From: Shigella virus Moo19
Sequence record: MZ358387
Strand: one strand, 5' to 3'
Length of the DNA stretch: 64,000 nt
Below, piece after piece: positions 50,503 through 57,240 of this stretch. The translations under genes were made by a program, and so were the position numbers. The notes under the pieces were generated by a model. It made no database searches, was not told the DNA's origin, and worked only from the letters and a program-made list of their open reading frames with translations. How positions within the stretch are numbered: position 1 is the first letter of the stretch; the number at the start of each line of letters is the position of its first letter.

Positions 50503-52785
50503 TTAAAGGTTCATGCCGGGACTCAATGCTGGGTCACGACTTGGGTCAAAATACTGGGAACCAATGGAAAGAGATGGGTCTTGGGGTGCAAGAGCATCAC
50601 GTTCTAATTCATTGTTCACCTGGTTGTTACCATCGGTAATTGCATTATATCCGATAGCAGCAGATATGTTAGGGGAAGTTTCGCCTTCTTTTACTGGTTG
50701 TGTCAATGCTTTAGTTACTTGAAGGTTCTGGTTACCCTGAGATTGTGCTTTTTGTTTTTCCATTTCACGAGCATGTTTAGTGCCGGATTCCTGTTCCAGA
50801 TAATCCAGATTAGTCATATCTTTCTTAGCATCTTCTGCACGAACCTTAGCTTCGTTCAATGCAATCTCAGATTGCAGCTTTTGGTTTTCCAGTTGAGCTT
50901 TCTGAATAGCCAGTTGCTTAAGTTGTTCTTCCATTGGGTCTGGTTCTGGTTTCCAGGTACGTAACTCGTGTGCCAGTTCAGGCATACGTTTAAGTTCTGC
51001 AATACGTGCAACCAGTTTAAGAGTAACTTGCTGGTCAACCGTGTTACCAATAGTCTGAACCATGAAGCCCAGGTCTTGGGATTTCTGGTTATCGACTTCA
51101 GCAGTGTTGATATCTACTTCAATATCAAAGTTGCCTTTCAGGTCTTCACGGTTAATAGTCACGTATTCCTCATTGGTAATACGAACGACTTCTGTCTCAG
51201 AAAGGAATACGGCATTCATTGCACAAATCTTTGTACCAATGTCAGCCATACCTTTTGCCAGACGACGAAGGATTGCCATCTCACGTTTAGAAGCTGCATC
51301 CAGTGCACCACGAATACCAGCAGCAACATCACCATAAGCTGAACCAGTAACACCACCTGCAAATGCCTTTACCCCGGTAAGTGCTTCTGCTTCTTGGTTC
51401 TGCATCTGAGACATTACAATTGCAGACTGAGGTAACTCAGGGAATTTATGTTCGATAATTGCCTGAGAAGGATTACCCGTCTGGGGATTGTATTCATAGT
51501 CCAGACCATCTTCGAAACGACGACGGTTAAGAGTATCCAGCATACCTTTAGGGTAAGCACGTTGACCATTGGCACTACGACCAAGTAAGTCAATCATGCC
51601 ACGCATGGTAGCACCCAGGATTTTCTGGTTATCACCTAACAGTTCTGCATCTGCTTCGCCATACAATTCACGTTTACGTGGCATATATGGAACCAGTACG
51701 AATGGTAGCTTACCATCTGGGTATGGATTCTCTTCCATACGGATAAGAGTTGTACCAATCCAGGTAGCTACAATTGGCTTAAGTTCACCGTCACCGTTAG
51801 TATCCCAGAATCCCCAGTATTCATATGCAATGACACGTTTACGCATAGCATCACGGAACTGGAAGTCACCAGGAGTTTTACTCTCATGGTCTGGGTCAGT
51901 AAGTGGGGAAGAACTTTCCCAATCAATTTTATCCAGATTGTGATAACGGTCTGGGGTCTTTAACAAATCTGCTTTACAGGTTTCGAATGAGACAACTGCA
52001 AACAGTGCTCGGTCGAGGTCACCATTACAGGACGGGTCGATAACAACGTTGTTTGGGTCGAGCATTTCAACCGTTGGCCTGTTAACCACAGCCTTCTCGA
52101 CTTCAACTTCCGTAGTACCCGTCTGGATAGCATAAGTAGCTTCACCCGTTTCATTGAAATAGTTAACAGCTTCCTTAACGTCATCTGCTACTTGTTCCTC
52201 ATATCCACGGGGGTTTTGTGCCTGAAGGTCTAAGGCTTGTTGCAGAATCTGAACTTGTTCTTCTGTTTCAACAGGGTACATCTGGAAGACAGGGGCGTCC
52301 TGTTTAACCTTAACTACCTTGCGTTCCCAACCAACACGAGCAATGCCAGTACCGTCATCGCAGACAGAGTGAACGTAATCATCCACCAGCTTCACACGGT
52401 TAAGCTGAGTACGGAACTGGTAATTAAGTACAAGTTCGTTCTGACGTGCAGCTTGTTCATCTTCCCAGGTAACCGGGGTAAGTTTGAATAACTTAGGGGA
52501 TGACAGAAACGGCTCAGACAATGGGGCATAACGCCACTCTGCCTGACGTCGAACCAGTTTAGGCTGGACCTGGGAACGGCCTTTTACCTTTGGGGGCTTA
52601 GCCGAACCTTCTGCTTTCATGAGGTCATTCCATTTCTGGATTTCTTTCATGATTGCATCATGGGCTGGTTTACCTGCTTCAAGGTCAGCCTTCAGTGTCT
52701 GAATACTTGGCTCTTTCTTCCAGTTAGTCAGCTTATCTGATTGCCCTGGGTCTGGAAGAGGAGTCATAGAATCTTGATGTTCCAT
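50503..52785 (-). CDS. portal protein (N4 gp59-like)
   Basis: 760 aa (N4 portal about 763 aa as I recall); position between lysis cassette and scaffold/capsid genes. Confidence 0.6.
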
Positions 52786-52793
52786 AGTAATTC

Positions 52794-53294
52794 CTATTGT
52801 AAAAGTTTCCGGTCGGCCTTGATTTGGTTCCCCAACTCAATCAATTGGTTGTCACGGAGTCTAACAGTTGCCCTGAGTTCTTCAACCACTCGTCTGCCTT
52901 GTTCAAGACTGGAGTCGAGTTCGGCTGCATGGCTTGCAAGACTTCTGCACTCAAAGGTTCCGGCTTCGGCTTGACGTTTATATACGTCGGCTCTTTTGCT
53001 TGATTGCTGCATCCGGCTGTCGTAATCACTGCTAAGGCGAGCAAGCTCGCCTGCGTAATTACTCTCAGCCGTCTGCAATCTGGTAGTGAGCATACCGACT
53101 TCATAGCTGTGTTGTCTGTTAAGGACATCGTATTCACCCTTAAGTTTATTGTAGGCTTTCTGGTCTTCTACTTTCTGAGCATCCCACTTGGCCTGAACTT
53201 TATCCTGACCATTACTGGAACCCCAAAAGTAAATGGTGGCTCCCAAAGCCACCACTACCAGATAAGGCCAACCTTTAGAGATTAGCGTCATCAT
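52794..53294 (-). CDS. i-spanin (Rz-like)
   Basis: GGAGG RBS then ATG 53294. N-terminal TM '[17 protein letters not shown]' followed by a coiled coil. Confidence 0.55.
52841..53128 (-). CDS. o-spanin (Rz1-like lipoprotein) embedded in the i-spanin gene in another frame
   Basis: Hydrophobic signal '[14 protein letters not shown]' with lipobox Cys, then a Pro-rich mature part ('[11 protein letters not shown]...'). Start uncertain (53128 or 53104). Confidence 0.5.
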   Translation of the reverse strand: MSLTDNTAMKSVCSLPDCRRLRVITQASLLALAVITTAGCSNQAKEPTYINVKPKPEPLSAEVLQAMQPNSTPVLNKADEWLKNSGQLLDSVTTN

Positions 53295-53910
53295 TACATG
53301 CCTCCAGAGGCACATTACCAATACGGTTTGATATCCAGCCATACGTATAGTCAGGCATGTTTAACGAGGTGTAGTGATTAAGTTGTTTACCATCCAATAG
53401 CTTAATCATAGTCTTACAGGCTTCTACTTTGCCTCGTTTTTTCTGGAGTGCCCTATACGAGTTAATGGTTGCTGTACCAACTTTACCATCAACTTGTATT
53501 TTAGGGTAGTCTTTGCCATTACGACTAACGTCATTCAAAGACTCTTGAAGCCAACGTGCTGGACGTGGTGTCCCAGTGTTTACTCCAGCATCCACCAGCT
53601 TGTGGGTCACAGCAGGACTAATAGAAGCGAACTCAATAAAGTTTGGCTTGATAATGTAGTCATCAACATAAACTTCAGCAGCCATCTCTTTAGTAAGTCC
53701 TTTCATAGTCCCATCCCATCCGTATTTCTTTGCTAAGACTTCCTTGTGGGACTGGGCTACTTTCTTAGTTATCCCGTGATTAGTTTCCCCTCCTGGGTCT
53801 TTGGGGTCATTTACATAACCACCTTCCAGCATAAAAACGGAACCAAGAATGGCAGCAACTACTGCTCCCACTGCACCACCCCTGGTTGCTAGTTTTTTAT
53901 TTATTGCCAT
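53275..53910 (-). CDS. SAR endolysin, GH108-type N-acetylmuramidase
   Basis: AGAGGAGG RBS then ATG 53910. N-terminal Gly/Ala-rich weak TM 'GGAVGAVVAAILGSVFML' followed by 'EGGYVNDPKDPGGETNHGIT'. Confidence 0.7.
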   Translation of the reverse strand: MAINKKLATRGGAVGAVVAAILGSVFMLEGGYVNDPKDPGGETNHGITKKVAQSHKEVLAKKYGWDGTMKGLTKEMAAEVYVDDYIIKPNFIEFASISPAVTHKLVDAGVNTGTPRPARWLQESLNDVSRNGKDYPKIQVDGKVGTATINSYRALQKKRGKVEACKTMIKLLDGKQLNHYTSLNMPDYTYGWISNRIGNVPLEACNDDANL

Positions 53911-54163
53911 GATAGTCCTCCTCTTTAGGCTTTAAACGAATAAGCCTGCCAACGATGTTCAAGGCAAATAAGCCAATGGCAACACCTGAACCATGTGGAA
54001 TCTGGTCAAGCAGATGTCTTGGCAAACCTGAGAACATTGGCTGGATTATATCGACGGCAGAGAAGAGAATCAGACCAATAGTACTAATCTGGATAGAAGC
54101 CCATTTCCAGGCTCGTTTCCAGTTAGGTACTAGTTCAACCCTTTTGGTTAACCTGCGAACCAT
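53897..54163 (-). CDS. holin (two TM helices; pinholin candidate)
   Basis: TAAGGAGA RBS then ATG 54163. Two hydrophobic helices and a charged C-terminus; overlaps the endolysin start by 14 nt. Confidence 0.5.
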   Translation of the reverse strand: MVRRLTKRVELVPNWKRAWKWASIQISTIGLILFSAVDIIQPMFSGLPRHLLDQIPHGSGVAIGLFALNIVGRLIRLKPKEEDYHGNK

Positions 54164-54477
54164 GCGAAAATCTCCTTACGTGCTGCAACCAACAGACTTA
54201 AGATTGCACCTGCTGCTGCCCATACCCACTTACCAAAGATTCCTGCACCAACTACCTTGTGCTTAATGGTAATGAACTCTTCGATGGTAGGCTCATTTTT
54301 AGCAAGACTCTCTTCAACATTCTTAAGTCTGTTACTAACTTCAGCAACTGAGTCCTTAAGATTGGTGATGGAGTTTTCCAGCTTTGCTCGGTCATTCCTT
54401 TCACGTTCCTGGTTCTCGAACATGGTTTTAAATCGTTCCTCCAGTCGAGCCAGTAATACATCAGTGGGTTCAGACAT
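54148..54477 (-). CDS. C-terminally membrane-anchored coiled-coil protein (antiholin/lysis-regulator candidate)
   Basis: Cytoplasmic coiled coil then one C-terminal TM 'VVGAGIFGKWVWAAAGAILSLLVAA'. Start at ATG 54477; ORF-track start 54507 is GTG. Confidence 0.35.
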   Translation of the reverse strand: MSEPTDVLLARLEERFKTMFENQERERNDRAKLENSITNLKDSVAEVSNRLKNVEESLAKNEPTIEEFITIKHKVVGAGIFGKWVWAAAGAILSLLVAARKEIFAWFAG

Positions 54478-54535
54478 AATAATTTTCCACGTAGTAATAA
54501 TATGCACCAGGAATAATACTTATAAACGCTAGCCT

Positions 54536-54567
54536 ACGAAAGGAAAAAGCCCCCATTAAGGAGGCTT
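54536..54567 (-). terminator. terminator-like hairpin downstream of the tail-spike gene
   Basis: Stem aagcccc/gaggctt (one mismatch) with U-rich flank on both strands. Confidence 0.45.
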
Positions 54568-54573
54568 ACTTTT

Positions 54574-57204
54574 TTAAAGCTGGGAGATGCTCCAGTATGC
54601 ACTACGTGATTTTGTCAGTGGTGGTCTAGTGGTAAGTGGTTCGGTTGCCCGAATACGAGTACCTGCCGGAACTGCTGTCTGAATAGGATGAGCAATGTCC
54701 ATCGTAATCGGAGCAGAGATGTTTGTAGCAGGTGTCTGATAAGGAGCCTTAGTAATATAAGTCTCAAGGTCAGCACCTCCAGCCCCAGCACCCGGAATTG
54801 TAATACGAGTACCTGGTGAGAACTGGCAAACGTACAACCATGCTGAACCCTTAGACGTACCATCTGGAGTCAGATTCTGGGTAATGGTTTTAGTCCCAAC
54901 AGCAGCAGCTTTAATATCTGCTTCTTCGGTATCCGGGATAAACACACCAGGGGAAGTAACTACGAATGGGCTGTTAACGTAAACGTCAGCAGCAACAAAC
55001 TTAGTCTTATCCCTCATGTTGTCACGACCAGAGAGTGACGTGTTAGGAACCATCATGGAACGTTGAAGCTCCATAACAAACACCGTATCCCCATAGTTAA
55101 ACTGACGACCAGTAGGGAAACGAGTACCATTCTGACCGTGGTCAGCTTCACCAGGGAAGTAGACACGACCAGCAGAACCAACAGGCACACCGTTAGAACC
55201 AATGAAGTTAGCGTATGGTACAGACGTAACGTTAGAACCAGTGATGCTCACCTCAGAGTAACGGCAACGTAACCAGCCCTGACTAATTGCAATACGGTCA
55301 CCGTGGGTAGCGTTAACGTTAGTCATGTTCAGGACAGAACGTTGGAACGTAAACCAACCATCACCAGTAAAGCCATCAGCAGAAGAATACTGACCAACAC
55401 AGTTAAATACCTGAGTCAGTACGTTGGACATGTTCAACTCAGATGCTACACCGAACACAGTGAACTTGTAGGCATCAATGTTATCCAGTGTCACACGGTT
55501 ATTGTGCTCAACCAGATTGCCGTCCAGACCAGCAGATACACCTGCATAGAAACGACCAGTCTTAGTCACAACGTTACGTACTGTGAAGTTGTGGCAAGGA
55601 CAAGCCGGACCATATACGAAACCTGGGTCGGGTGGAATCAAAGTACCACTCTCATCATACTTAGGAGCATTGTTACCCCACTCCAGAGAAATAAGGCGTA
55701 CATCCTCAGCACTGGCAATTTCCTGGAATTTACCCGGTTCAAGCGGGAACTCAATACGTTCAGTCGCTAAGTCCGGTTCGCCGTATACACCGTTAATAGC
55801 AAAGTCTTTACAGCCATACATGAAGACTGCACCCAGAGACAAACCAGTACCCACAGATACTTTGTTACATGGGTCAGCATGAATGTTCTCGATAACAAGG
55901 TTACGACCAAGCTCAAAGTGAACCACCTGACGAACACGGTCTGCATAGACATTACGGATGGTAACGTTCTTACAGTATTGGTCTTGAGTAGCAGCCCAAC
56001 CATATGGACCCTTACCAGCAACACCGATACCGATACCCCAGTTGGATACAGGGATTGGAGCCAGGGAACCATCAATGTCAAAGATGGTGATGTTCTCAAT
56101 AACACAGCCATCATCGAAGCAGTTCTGTACAACGTTAAGCTCAATGGCATCGCCCTTCATAGAATGGAATGTAAGGTTACGAAGAACCATACGGTCAATC
56201 TTGCCACCAGAACCTTGCTGAAGAATACCGAAGTAACCACCACGGAAAATACAACCTTCCATCTGGAAAGTACCTGCATCAGTGAAAGAAGCATTAGCAG
56301 CTTTCTCTGCATCAGTAGCACCAGGGATAGAAGTGTCATAATGCCATAAGTGCTGGAATACAACGGAGCCAGCTTGACCAGCACGAGGAGGACCATCGAA
56401 CAGACAATCGGTCATAACAATGTCACCACCCTTTGGCATTACACGCGTGTTCTTAAACGTAGTGCCACGGAAGATAGTGTTATGAATCCAGAAGTCACGG
56501 TCACCCTCAAACTCACCATTCAGTACAGTGATGTTTTCAGCAAGCAGACGCCCTACGTTAAGCCAACCGGACTGGAATCCAGTACAGTCAATAACGTGTG
56601 GTGCATTGTCACGAGCATATTTAAACGCATCGTTAACTGCATCAGTCATGGTTGCATATGGACGGTTAGTAAATTCACGAATGTGAGGTACGTTCATCCA
56701 GTCAGAGATATTACCACCAGCAGGAGTAGTAATAGTCTCAGCAGGAATAAGAACCCATGCACCAGGTTTAATGCCACCAGCATTAATTGGGTTGTCCGTG
56801 GCAGACATCTGCTTAGGTAATGCCCCAGTCCAACGGTAACGACCAGCACCGAACAGAATAGTTTGGTTATGGGTTTCCAATGTGTAATTCATACCAAAAG
56901 CAAAACCAGTATGAAAATACTCACCACGTTTAGCAGCATACTCACCAAGGTCTATAGAACCAGCAGAATGTGTAAGTACCCCAGAAGTAGCTAAACCTAC
57001 TGCCGTGGTTCCAGATGGTAGACCACTAGGTAGATAATAAGCACGTTCTGTACGCTGGTCATAAATCACACGAATGGCAGAAATATCCATACCAGCTTTA
57101 AAGTAAGCTACCTGTTTTTCTGTTACCCCGAAATTACGGGCAATTGATTGCATATTTACAAGGATACTAGTTGAACCCTTTCCTTGTGCAAACAAGTTGT
57201 TCAT
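54574..57204 (-). CDS. tail spike protein with predicted right-handed beta-helix (polysaccharide-depolymerase-like)
   Basis: AGAGG RBS then ATG 57204. 876 aa with recurring beta-helix rungs ('IENITIFDIDGS', 'VTIRNVYADRV', 'LVIENIHADP'). Confidence 0.5.
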   Translation of the reverse strand: MNNLFAQGKGSTSILVNMQSIARNFGVTEKQVAYFKAGMDISAIRVIYDQRTERAYYLPSGLPSGTTAVGLATSGVLTHSAGSIDLGEYAAKRGEYFHTGFAFGMNYTLETHNQTILFGAGRYRWTGALPKQMSATDNPINAGGIKPGAWVLIPAETITTPAGGNISDWMNVPHIREFTNRPYATMTDAVNDAFKYARDNAPHVIDCTGFQSGWLNVGRLLAENITVLNGEFEGDRDFWIHNTIFRGTTFKNTRVMPKGGDIVMTDCLFDGPPRAGQAGSVVFQHLWHYDTSIPGATDAEKAANASFTDAGTFQMEGCIFRGGYFGILQQGSGGKIDRMVLRNLTFHSMKGDAIELNVVQNCFDDGCVIENITIFDIDGSLAPIPVSNWGIGIGVAGKGPYGWAATQDQYCKNVTIRNVYADRVRQVVHFELGRNLVIENIHADPCNKVSVGTGLSLGAVFMYGCKDFAINGVYGEPDLATERIEFPLEPGKFQEIASAEDVRLISLEWGNNAPKYDESGTLIPPDPGFVYGPACPCHNFTVRNVVTKTGRFYAGVSAGLDGNLVEHNNRVTLDNIDAYKFTVFGVASELNMSNVLTQVFNCVGQYSSADGFTGDGWFTFQRSVLNMTNVNATHGDRIAISQGWLRCRYSEVSITGSNVTSVPYANFIGSNGVPVGSAGRVYFPGEADHGQNGTRFPTGRQFNYGDTVFVMELQRSMMVPNTSLSGRDNMRDKTKFVAADVYVNSPFVVTSPGVFIPDTEEADIKAAAVGTKTITQNLTPDGTSKGSAWLYVCQFSPGTRITIPGAGAGGADLETYITKAPYQTPATNISAPITMDIAHPIQTAVPAGTRIRATEPLTTRPPLTKSRSAYWSISQL

Positions 57205-57212
57205 AAGAACCT

Positions 57213-57240
57213 CTTTAAAAAGCCCTACCTAAGTAGGGCA
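57213..57240 (-). terminator. rho-independent terminator downstream of the SGNH tail-fibre gene
   Basis: Stem gccctac/gtagggc, loop 'ttag' on the minus strand, then UUUUU. Confidence 0.6.

Follow-up and report, generated by a model that had tools for sequence, protein, structure and literature searches.

This locus raises the question of which protein would open the inner membrane and time lysis in Shigella virus Moo19 (sequence record MZ358387), and what a small membrane-anchored coiled-coil protein does next to a two-TMD holin and an endolysin. The window, which is the whole stretch of DNA analysed, is 64,000 nucleotides long. A sequence-only reading of it had placed a lysis cassette at 53275-54507, consisting of a GH108 endolysin of the signal-anchor-release (SAR) type, a two-TM holin and an extra coiled-coil protein, thought to be an antiholin or a lysis-timing regulator. 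The three minus-strand ORFs are all present at these coordinates, and all three encoded proteins are exact matches to Moo19 RefSeq entries, namely YP_010657802.1 (gp80), YP_010657801.1 ('holin') and YP_010657800.1 (gp78). Moo19 belongs to Moovirus, Schitoviridae. As judged from its sequence, the interval makes up the upstream three-fifths of a five-gene late lysis cassette of this N4-like Shigella phage. The cassette extends beyond 53275: further downstream come an i-spanin gene (53294..52794) and an embedded o-spanin gene (53128..52841), both of which had been missed. The features of the locus are listed in the direction of transcription of the cassette.

54547..54567, minus strand: intrinsic-terminator-like hairpin between the tailspike gene and the lysis cassette (8 pairs, 5 of them GC, T-run)
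54497..54526, minus strand: weak match to a sigma-70-like promoter ahead of the first lysis gene, TTTATA-18-TATTAT (9/12 match)
54148..54477, minus strand: predicted gp63-type tail-anchored pinholin, Moo19 gp80, 109 aa (homology, heptads, AF2, hydropathy)
53897..54163, minus strand: predicted gp62-type two-TMD holin of class II topology, 88 aa (Pfam, PHROG, N4 orthology)
53275..53910, minus strand: predicted SAR endolysin, an N-acetylmuramidase with GH108 and PG_binding_3, Moo19 gp78, 211 aa (Pfam, PDB, N4 orthology)
53232..53256, minus strand: conserved 11-bp hairpin with T-rich tail inside the i-spanin TMD codons (covariation, terminator scan)
52794..53294, minus strand: i-spanin (Rz-like), 166 aa, ATG at 53294 (phrog_6197, N4 gp60 homology)
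52841..53128, minus strand: o-spanin (Rz1-like lipoprotein), lying wholly within the i-spanin gene but in a different frame (lipobox, alignment to St11Ph5 gp60.1)

Plus-strand ORFs of 80-103 aa within the interval lie opposite well-supported genes and were dismissed, by position only, as shadow ORFs. Across 52500-54800 no Rfam family is found above its gathering score, and three weak hits are attributed to chance.

A comparison with phage N4 shows the same five genes in the same order, with 57-70% amino acid identity to Moo19. The cassette is flanked by a tailspike gene upstream and the portal gene downstream, corresponding to the tail and portal flanks of N4, except that the upstream neighbour in N4 is gp64/gp65. 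The overlapping starts and stops seen in the earlier reading are real and are kept to the nucleotide relative to N4 (gp63/gp62 16 nt, gp62/gp61 14 nt, gp61/i-spanin 20 nt), and each downstream start has its Shine-Dalgarno sequence inside the upstream gene. Both phages share the SAR segment, the EGGY motif, the LIN-domain block and the C-terminal TMD, and the mature part of the o-spanin has 56 residues in both. The Moo19 cassette is thus very probably of the N4 gp63-gp62-gp61-gp60/60a type, its functional steps being carried over from N4 by orthology. For N4 it is already worked out how the genes of the cassette are ordered and what each protein does, and in this sense the Moo19 case is already known. 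The N4 cassette was also treated by Stojkovic & Rothman-Denes 2007, and Table S3 of Awuah et al. (bioRxiv 10.1101/2025.11.12.688109) enters YP_010657801.1 and YP_010657802.1 as gp62/gp63 homologues. The structural paper on Moo19 has no wording on lysis, holin, endolysin, muramidase or burst/latent/one-step.

The endolysin gp78 contains a Glyco_hydro_108 domain (PF05838, E=3.4e-20, 72.8 bits, cutoff 21.2) and a PG_binding_3 domain (PF09374, E=6.3e-8, 33.1 bits, cutoff 24.6). It also matches the holin-associated N-acetylmuramidase model NF040573 (E=3e-15) with 56.5 bits, below the 240-bit cutoff. The motif EGGYVNDPKDPGG is formed by residues 29-41, and its EGGY glutamate, E29, does not vary among 12 orthologues. 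Among solved structures, the GH108 and PG_binding_3 fold of the endolysin recurs in Salmonella Sen1395 (6v3z, E=9e-27) and in the PG_binding_3 protein 6v40 (E=4e-19), and their EGGYVN.P.D.GG motif aligns with that of the endolysin. However, both are bacterial proteins outside any phage pinholin cassette, and their alignments start at or past the hydrophobic segment of the endolysin (residue 23 for 6v3z).

This hydrophobic segment, GGAVGAVVAAILGSVFML, has 18 residues (11-28, 53880..53827), of which nine are Gly, Ala or Ser, and it follows the N-terminus MAINKKLATR with a charge of +3. The SAR-like pattern is kept in 12/12 endolysin orthologues. Topology and SAR features were judged here by hydropathy (including Hessa scale values), charge and -3/-1 heuristics. 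Alternatively, the N-terminus might be cleaved off as a Sec signal peptide or act as a permanent anchor, for which the fairly high Kyte-Doolittle mean of 2.1 and the V-A-A at residues 18-20 could speak. By the heuristic, however, -3/-1-compatible sites are found only in this mid-core position (19-20), with 8 further hydrophobic residues after it, while the C-terminal end of the segment (FML/EGG) is -3/-1 incompatible and carries no AXA-type site. The SAR-like Gly/Ala/Ser composition in all orthologues also argues against a signal peptide, as does the behaviour of N4 gp61, which is 70% identical to the Moo19 endolysin. N4 gp61 is a membrane-associated SAR endolysin that works with a pinholin; alone it leaks slowly, a negative charge in its SAR segment leads to rapid lysis, and it works in a phage 21 hybrid (Awuah et al., bioRxiv 10.1101/2025.11.12.688109). 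G12 of N4 gp61, the site of the rapid-lysis G12E mutation, aligns with the conserved G15 of the Moo19 protein. A signal peptide or a permanent anchor is very improbable on these grounds. The GH108 endolysin with SAR-type N-terminus is therefore borne out by Pfam, by the Gly/Ala-rich segment and by the identity to gp61. The SAR endolysin and holin calls both stand because the N4 orthologues gp61 and gp62 have been shown by experiment, and the Moo19 endolysin should be annotated as a SAR endolysin.

The coiled-coil protein gp80 is 60.6% identical to N4 gp63 over 109 aligned residues, which is the full length (tblastn E=2e-38; phrog_5211 E=3e-47). An unbroken heptad repeat is formed by residues 5-62 (54465..54292), with core hydrophobics at 71% of the a/d positions versus 7% of the other positions, which is reached by 0/5000 shuffles. 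Hydropathy reveals one hydrophobic segment, located C-terminally at about residues 80-98 (54240..54184). In the single-sequence AF2 model helices are found at residues 3-61, 65-77 and 82-108; its pLDDT is about 50 in the TMD region, and because of this low confidence the model was used for secondary structure only. From the charge and the missing signal sequence only, the coiled coil would be cytoplasmic. The LIN-domain helix corresponds to residues 61-71 (54297..54265). The sequence PTIEEFITIKHKVVGAG is identical to N4, and the block PTIEEFITIKHKVVGAG..GKWVW is conserved throughout a set of 12 Schitoviridae. Of the five LIN-domain positions of N4 (S62-I72), four are identical in gp80 (T65, I70, T71 and I72), while S62 is replaced by Asn. 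The predicted coiled coil with a single C-terminal TM is thus confirmed, whereas of the proposed length of 110-119 aa the 119-aa form is not supported and the protein has 109 aa. A 119-aa form would start at GTG 54507. We rejected this start: the homologues all start at the equivalent ATG, the GTG has no Shine-Dalgarno sequence, its upstream sequence is unconserved, and it would overlap the only promoter-like -10 element. The promoter at 54497..54526, if real, would also argue against the 119-aa form, since transcription would start downstream of GTG 54507.

The role of gp80 is best read from N4 gp63, which was shown by experiment to be the pinholin and the main lysis timer, with a 'LIN domain' beside the TMD (bioRxiv 10.1101/2025.11.12.688109). 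It is lethal alone and can stand in for the S21 pinholin, though not for lambda S105, and its small holes let out a SAR endolysin but no soluble one; lysis is delayed by 20 min when it is removed from the plasmid cassette, and the gp63 deletion in the phage gained suppressor mutations and could not be complemented (same preprint). This assignment comes from one preprint and from plasmid or lambda-hybrid complementation, and in an earlier thesis gp63 was called an 'activator of gp61'. The competing explanation takes the two-TMD protein as the main holin and the coiled-coil protein with the C-terminal TMD as an antiholin or a pure timing regulator. It would account for the N4 rapid-lysis (LIN-defective) mutations, which cluster in the cytoplasmic helix of gp63 beside the TMD, for the synergistic effect of co-expression with the SAR endolysin, and for the joint occurrence of gp62 and gp63 in 60/65 N4-like genomes (bioRxiv 10.1101/2025.11.12.688109) and in 31/31 loci of our census. 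Of the 60 viral contigs in this census that encode a related endolysin, 31 have homologues of both immediately upstream and in the same order. However, gp63 by itself kills cells and replaces S21, and its loss delays lysis, where the loss of an antiholin would advance it; for this reason gp63 is not taken as an antiholin. Furthermore, gp62 can be deleted from the plasmid system with no change in lysis and is non-essential in the phage, and gp63 homologues exist without gp62 in Delftia phage RG-2014, where the endolysin follows directly, and in Sinorhizobium phage ort11, beside the portal gene. An antiholin is therefore very improbable. The orthologue of the protein that had been called 'extra' is the lethal hole-forming pinholin, and it is gp62 that is dispensable. 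The 'lysis-timing regulator' of the sequence-only reading holds only in the sense that a pinholin is the timer and bears the LIN-domain mutation cluster; because the rapid-lysis mutations cluster there, gp63 is a point of regulation.

By orthology gp80 would be pinholin-like, yet its sequence places it outside the S21-type (class II) family. No Pfam or PHROG match to holin class II families is found for it, and a search of NCBIfam gave nothing for gp62 or the spanins and only sub-threshold coiled-coil noise for gp63. In many N4-like records the 109-aa protein is labelled as 'tail length tape-measure protein', and its gene comes directly after the tailspike genes, so that a virion or tail component might be considered. 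Against this stand its length of only 109 aa with a C-terminal TMD and the outcome of the family searches, in which no tape-measure or virion family matches and the hits in Pfam and NCBIfam are just weak, sub-cutoff ones to coiled coils. In addition, its gene shares 16 nt with the holin gene and is parted from the tailspike gene by the terminator-like hairpin, the 'tail length tape measure' label is borne in St11Ph5 by the gp57 homologue instead, and a role in lysis has been demonstrated for the N4 orthologue. We give a tail component next to no probability. The 109-aa gene is widely mislabelled in this way or as 'hypothetical', and should be annotated as a gp63-type pinholin. Remnants of gp63 genes were also observed in myophage tailspike loci.

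The two-TM holin of the earlier reading is likewise supported. The 88-aa protein matches DUF7940 (PF25612, E=1e-15, 58.5 bits versus a cutoff of 27) and PHROG 1356 'holin' (E=3e-28), and is 65.5% identical to N4 gp62, an orthologue with holin activity. Its two hydrophobic segments are TMD1 at residues 23-40 (54097..54044) and TMD2 at residues 60-77 (53986..53933), and the flanking charges (N +6, loop 0, C +2) suggest an N-in/C-in orientation. N4 gp62 is a dispensable holin with late CCCP-triggered lethality; its deletion leaves lysis in the plasmid system unchanged, and it is non-essential in the phage (bioRxiv 10.1101/2025.11.12.688109). In N4 a long gp62 of 109 aa arises from a 22-codon upstream extension, which is closed by a TAA in Moo19. 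This TAA, 4 codons ahead of the ATG, is created by a Lys codon of the overlapping gp63 gene, while the same frame is open in N4, St11Ph5, Jgk1 and KP8. Because of the TAA no longer form of gp62 is possible in Moo19, and a dual start of the lambda S107/S105 type is absent from the gp62-like gene. Such a dual start is not found in the gp63-like gene either, where GTG 54507 is unconserved and without a Shine-Dalgarno sequence and the internal alternative start of N4 gp63, Met17, is not conserved; Moo19 has Phe at this position and Met at 19.

The downstream part of the cassette encodes the spanins. The i-spanin belongs to phrog_6197, Rz-like spanin (E=2e-72), has an N-terminal TMD and a helical periplasmic domain, and is 57.2% identical to N4 gp60 and 79.5% to St11Ph5 gp60.2. 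Its ATG at 53294 is backed by the starts of the homologues, a GGAGG 6-9 nt upstream and the RefSeq length of 166 aa; on the same grounds a 182-aa form starting at 53342 was rejected. The o-spanin ORF has a lipobox (...VITTAG/C) and aligns with the annotated gp60.1 of St11Ph5. An inner-membrane type II protein and a lipoprotein ORF in another frame of its gene are thus present, as in a two-component embedded spanin system. The N4 spanins gp60/60a complement lambda Rz/Rz1 (bioRxiv 10.1101/2025.11.12.688109). The embedded o-spanin is often missing from annotations.

Two hairpins are found at the locus. The hairpin at 54547..54567, 7 nt past the tailspike stop, is formed by AAGCCTCC-TTAAT-GGGGGCTT followed by TTTCCTTT, and Salmonella phage SKML-39 has this stretch at 97% identity. 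The promoter scan gave 2 sigma-70-like matches in the region versus 3.2 in shuffles, and since there is no excess over this expectation, the scan is not taken as evidence. The second hairpin, 53232..53256, lies 19 nt past the endolysin stop, is terminator-like, and has counterparts at the same place in N4, G7C, St11Ph5 and Jgk1 as well as in metagenomic contigs. In the alignment 98% of the cells are paired, versus 38-63% in slid controls, and compensatory changes are found in 4 of the 11 pairs; 0/500 shuffles reach this. It is possibly an attenuator or an mRNA 3'-end element, and if regulatory, it would be an undescribed element of the cassette. The hairpin is also present in other Enquatrovirinae.

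From the orthology with N4, the following course of lysis may be proposed. gp80 would be held in the inner membrane by its C-terminal TMD, with the coiled coil and the LIN-domain helix in the cytoplasm, and at a critical concentration it would form small lethal holes that depolarise the membrane. Until then the Gly/Ala-rich SAR segment would keep the Sec-exported endolysin at the membrane in an inactive state, its EGGY glutamate being placed directly at the membrane face. Depolarisation would free the enzyme, and the GH108 muramidase would degrade the murein around the whole cell, after which the i-spanin/o-spanin pair would fuse the inner and outer membranes. The 88-aa protein would be a second, late-triggering and dispensable holin, which may serve as a back-up or an exit route.

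Phage 21 with S21/R21 (and P1 with Lyz) follows the same logic, in which depolarisation by small holes frees a SAR endolysin and the spanins act afterwards, but there is no sequence relationship. The endolysins R21 and P1 Lyz are of the T4-lysozyme type (GH24), whereas that of Moo19 is a GH108 enzyme. The pinholins also differ: S21 belongs to the class II holins and has two TMDs, the first of which is itself a SAR domain, whereas gp63/gp80 has one C-terminal TMD and a cytoplasmic coiled coil of 70 residues. The gp63-type protein resembles the T4 holin T, which has a single TMD and is the control point of delayed lysis, and in N4, as in T4, the r mutants map to the holin. However, the large domain of T is periplasmic and is the binding partner of the periplasmic antiholin RI, while in the gp63 type the large domain is cytoplasmic and the C-terminal tail has only ~10 residues. 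The gp63-type protein has no sequence similarity to T4 T, and no RI or RIII homologues were found.

The closest sequenced relatives in the phage collection belong to Gamaleyavirus (G7C, St11Ph5, Bp4), a genus different from Moovirus. They carry the gp63-gp60 cassette with the tailspike gene gp63.1 upstream, and their identity to Moo19 is about 77-79% at the nucleotide level over the cassette, about 78% over 24 kb and 73-80% at the amino acid level. By megablast of the collection the best cassette-wide matches are at about 79%, and matches of 95-99% are only short (SKML-39). These relatives keep the upstream extension of gp62 open, in contrast to Moo19. G7C has been reported without lysis inhibition.

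The practical value of these results lies in annotation, and they carry little weight as a discovery. Since a long gp62 isoform is impossible in Moo19, its regulation may differ from that of N4. Moo19-type phages could be variants of the N4 system that lack the long gp62 isoform and have the hairpin as a possible attenuator that would set the ratio of endolysin to spanins, a view that we hold to be rather unlikely. If the long gp62 is antiholin-like in N4, Moo19 would be a natural knockout for tests of lysis inhibition. With this missing isoform and the S62N exchange in the LIN domain, Moo19 would be a handy comparator for lysis inhibition of the N4 type.

In our ORF reading of the window, every gene of the lysis region is carried on the minus strand. 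The features are as follows:

3′ end at 54574, minus strand: tailspike gene, 876 aa
54567..54547, minus strand: terminator-like hairpin directly after the tailspike gene
54477..54148, minus strand: gp80 ORF, 109 aa, ATG start
54163..53897, minus strand: gp79 ORF, 88 aa
53910..53275, minus strand: gp78 endolysin ORF, 211 aa
53294..52794, minus strand: i-spanin ORF, 166 aa, Rz-like (phrog_6197, E=2e-72)
53128..52841, minus strand: o-spanin ORF, 95 aa, a lipoprotein with a lipobox, embedded in the i-spanin ORF in a different frame
start at 52785, minus strand: portal gene, 760 aa

An in-frame GTG at 54507 gives a 119-aa version of the gp80 ORF. Consecutive lysis genes overlap by 16, 14 and 20 nt, and the Shine-Dalgarno sequence of each overlapping start (AAGGAG, GAGGAGG and GGAGG) sits inside the previous gene. 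Re-reading the ORFs and overlaps shows that the sequence-only reading located and described the interval 53275-54507 correctly; the interval ends two genes before the end of the cassette, with the i-spanin and embedded o-spanin beyond it.

The three proteins of the interval are identical to YP_010657802.1 (gp80), YP_010657801.1 (gp79, 'holin') and YP_010657800.1 (gp78) of Shigella virus Moo19 (GenBank MZ358387; PMC11654681), a 72,458-bp record classified as Schitoviridae, Enquatrovirinae, Moovirus. The nearest relatives in the phage collection are Gamaleyavirus members (G7C, St11Ph5, Bp4 and others), with about 77-79% nucleotide identity to the window across the cassette and about 78% over 24 kb. 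By sequence, the Moo19 cassette is the gene-for-gene counterpart of coliphage N4 gp63-gp62-gp61-gp60/60a. Amino acid identities to N4 are 60.6% (gp63), 65.5% (gp62), 70.0% (gp61) and 57.2% (gp60), the neighbours are the same, and all three overlap lengths are equal to the nucleotide. This instance and its lysis system are already known: Table S3 of Awuah et al. (bioRxiv 10.1101/2025.11.12.688109) lists Moo19 YP_010657801.1 and YP_010657802.1 as gp62/gp63 homologues. Among 60 viral contigs encoding a related endolysin, gp63 and gp62 homologues are found directly upstream in the same order in 31.

The endolysin gp78 matches Glyco_hydro_108 (E=3.4e-20) and PG_binding_3 (E=6.3e-8) in Pfam and the solved GH108 proteins Sen1395 (6v3z, E=9e-27) and 6v40. 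Its N-terminus starts with MAINKKLATR (net +3), followed by GGAVGAVVAAILGSVFML, in which 9 of 18 residues are Gly, Ala or Ser. Immediately after this hydrophobic segment comes Glu29 of the EGGY motif, invariant in the 12 endolysins aligned, and all 12 keep the pattern of basic residues, Gly/Ala-rich hydrophobic stretch and EGGY. A heuristic −3/−1 scan, which is not a formal predictor, found nothing resembling a signal-peptidase site where the stretch ends. The preferred reading is a signal-anchor-release (SAR) segment; that the stretch is a cleavable signal peptide or anchors the enzyme permanently is unlikely. N4 gp61 is a SAR endolysin that functions with a pinholin as well as with a large-hole holin, and it leaks slowly when expressed by itself; its rapid-lysis mutants, such as G12E, bring a negative charge into the SAR segment (Awuah et al.). 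Gly12 of N4 gp61 corresponds to the conserved Gly15 of the Moo19 endolysin. For the spanins, the Moo19 o-spanin lipobox reads TTAG|C and leaves a mature portion of 56 residues, and N4 gp60/60a complements lambda Rz/Rz1 (Awuah et al.).

Two hydrophobic segments are observed in gp79 (residues 23-40 and 60-77), with flank charges of +6, 0 and +2 that indicate an N-in/C-in topology. Its family matches are Pfam DUF7940 (58.5 bits, cutoff 27) and PHROG 1356, a 'holin' family. In gp80, an unbroken heptad repeat spans residues 5-62, with core hydrophobics at 71% of a/d positions vs 7% elsewhere (0 of 5000 shuffles as high), and the only hydrophobic segment is C-terminal. A single-sequence AF2 model places helices at 3-61 (pLDDT >90 over most), 65-77 and 82-108. 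Alignment of gp63 homologues from 12 Schitoviridae shows that the coiled coil varies and that the block PTIEEFITIKHKVVGAG..GKWVW, which leads into the transmembrane segment, is highly conserved.

The sequence-only reading had taken this coiled-coil protein for a possible antiholin. Its observations hold; the antiholin role conflicts with the N4 data, and the interpretation is supported in part. N4 gp63 alone is lethal and complements the phage 21 pinholin, not lambda S105; its deletion from the plasmid cassette makes lysis 20 min later (Awuah et al.). The dispensable partner is gp62, a canonical holin that triggers very late and received no hits in the r-mutant screen (Awuah et al.). The antiholin role also conflicts with Delftia phage RG-2014 and Sinorhizobium phage ort11, which have gp63 but lack a gp62 homologue; of all cassette members, gp63 therefore seems to persist most. 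In RG-2014 the endolysin directly follows gp63; in ort11 the next gene downstream of gp63 is the portal gene, and neither an endolysin nor a spanin gene separates the two.

The common database label of the 109-aa gene, 'tail length tape-measure protein', is without support. It is widespread among records of gp63-type homologues; one record reads 'tail needle protein', and one Klebsiella phage record labels the region 'RIIA/RIIB lysis inhibitor'. All these labels look like mis-annotations that have spread from record to record. The 91-aa cluster members come from gene callers that choose a Met19 start.

The N4 '109-aa gp62' with two starts has been likened to the dual-start motif of lambda. In N4, St11Ph5, Jgk1 and KP8, about 22 codons ahead of gp62 are open in its frame, and in N4 this extension underlies the proposed long isoform. 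In Moo19 it is closed by a TAA four codons upstream of the gp79 ATG (54164-54178, minus strand). This stop is created by the codon for Lys100 in the overlapping gp80; N4 and St11Ph5 have Arg at this residue. The short-only form also occurs in three metagenomic loci (L018-L020). Since the extension is closed and the internal Met17 of N4 gp63 is not conserved in the window, the putative dual-start features are not general to the family.

Among the i-spanin transmembrane codons, 19 nt beyond the endolysin stop, is an 11-bp hairpin with a T-rich tail (53256..53232, minus strand). It is found at the equal place in nine Enquatrovirinae sequences (the window, N4 (L002), and loci L001, L006, L007, L016-L018 and L027), with 98% of alignment cells paired and compensatory changes in 4 of 11 pairs, mostly at third codon positions. 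None of 500 shuffles reaches this pairing, and the value is 38-63% in slid controls. Near the same place, different hairpins occur in KP8-type and Rothmandenesvirinae phages. Because it comes from only nine related sequences in a coding region, this conservation is suggestive only. The hairpin could set how much spanin is made relative to endolysin, either as an attenuator or as an element of an mRNA 3′ end.

The terminator, the intergenic DNA and codons 1-88 of gp80 together form a 356-bp stretch (54567..54213, minus strand) that shares 97% identity with DNA lying between tailspike genes of the Salmonella phage SKML-39 (Ackermannviridae, Agtrevirus), across the record origin (loci L004 and L003). 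The SKML-39 ORF diverges within the transmembrane segment and loses it, so that only a truncated remnant is left. Beside tail genes of a Phapecoctavirus (Escherichia phage vB_Ec-G1, L005:3001-3444) lies a similar remnant that is joined to unrelated sequence, and phage AV101 has a weaker one. N4-like podophages and large myophages have probably exchanged tailspike modules, with these remnants as the scars. Over its N-terminal part (56942-57216, minus strand), the Moo19 tailspike has about 66% nucleotide identity to the N-terminus of the SKML-39 'tail protein' gp002, which fits anchoring modules common to N4-like and Ackermannviridae tailspikes.

The plasmid-borne N4 gp60-63 cluster is sufficient for rapid lysis at about 25 min, and six rapid-lysis alleles cluster at S62-I72 of gp63, named the 'LIN domain' (Awuah et al.). 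Four of five LIN-domain positions are identical in gp80; S62 is Asn in Moo19 and likewise in St11Ph5. The anatomy and orthology of the Moo19 cassette are direct observations, and we infer every functional step by homology. From the N4 experiments and this orthology, Moo19 most likely lyses its host by an N4-type mechanism in which the pinholin gp80 acts first. It would build up in the inner membrane, trigger and depolarise it; the SAR-tethered GH108 muramidase would then be set free and activated, murein broken down and the two membranes fused by the spanins, with gp79 as a secondary, late holin.
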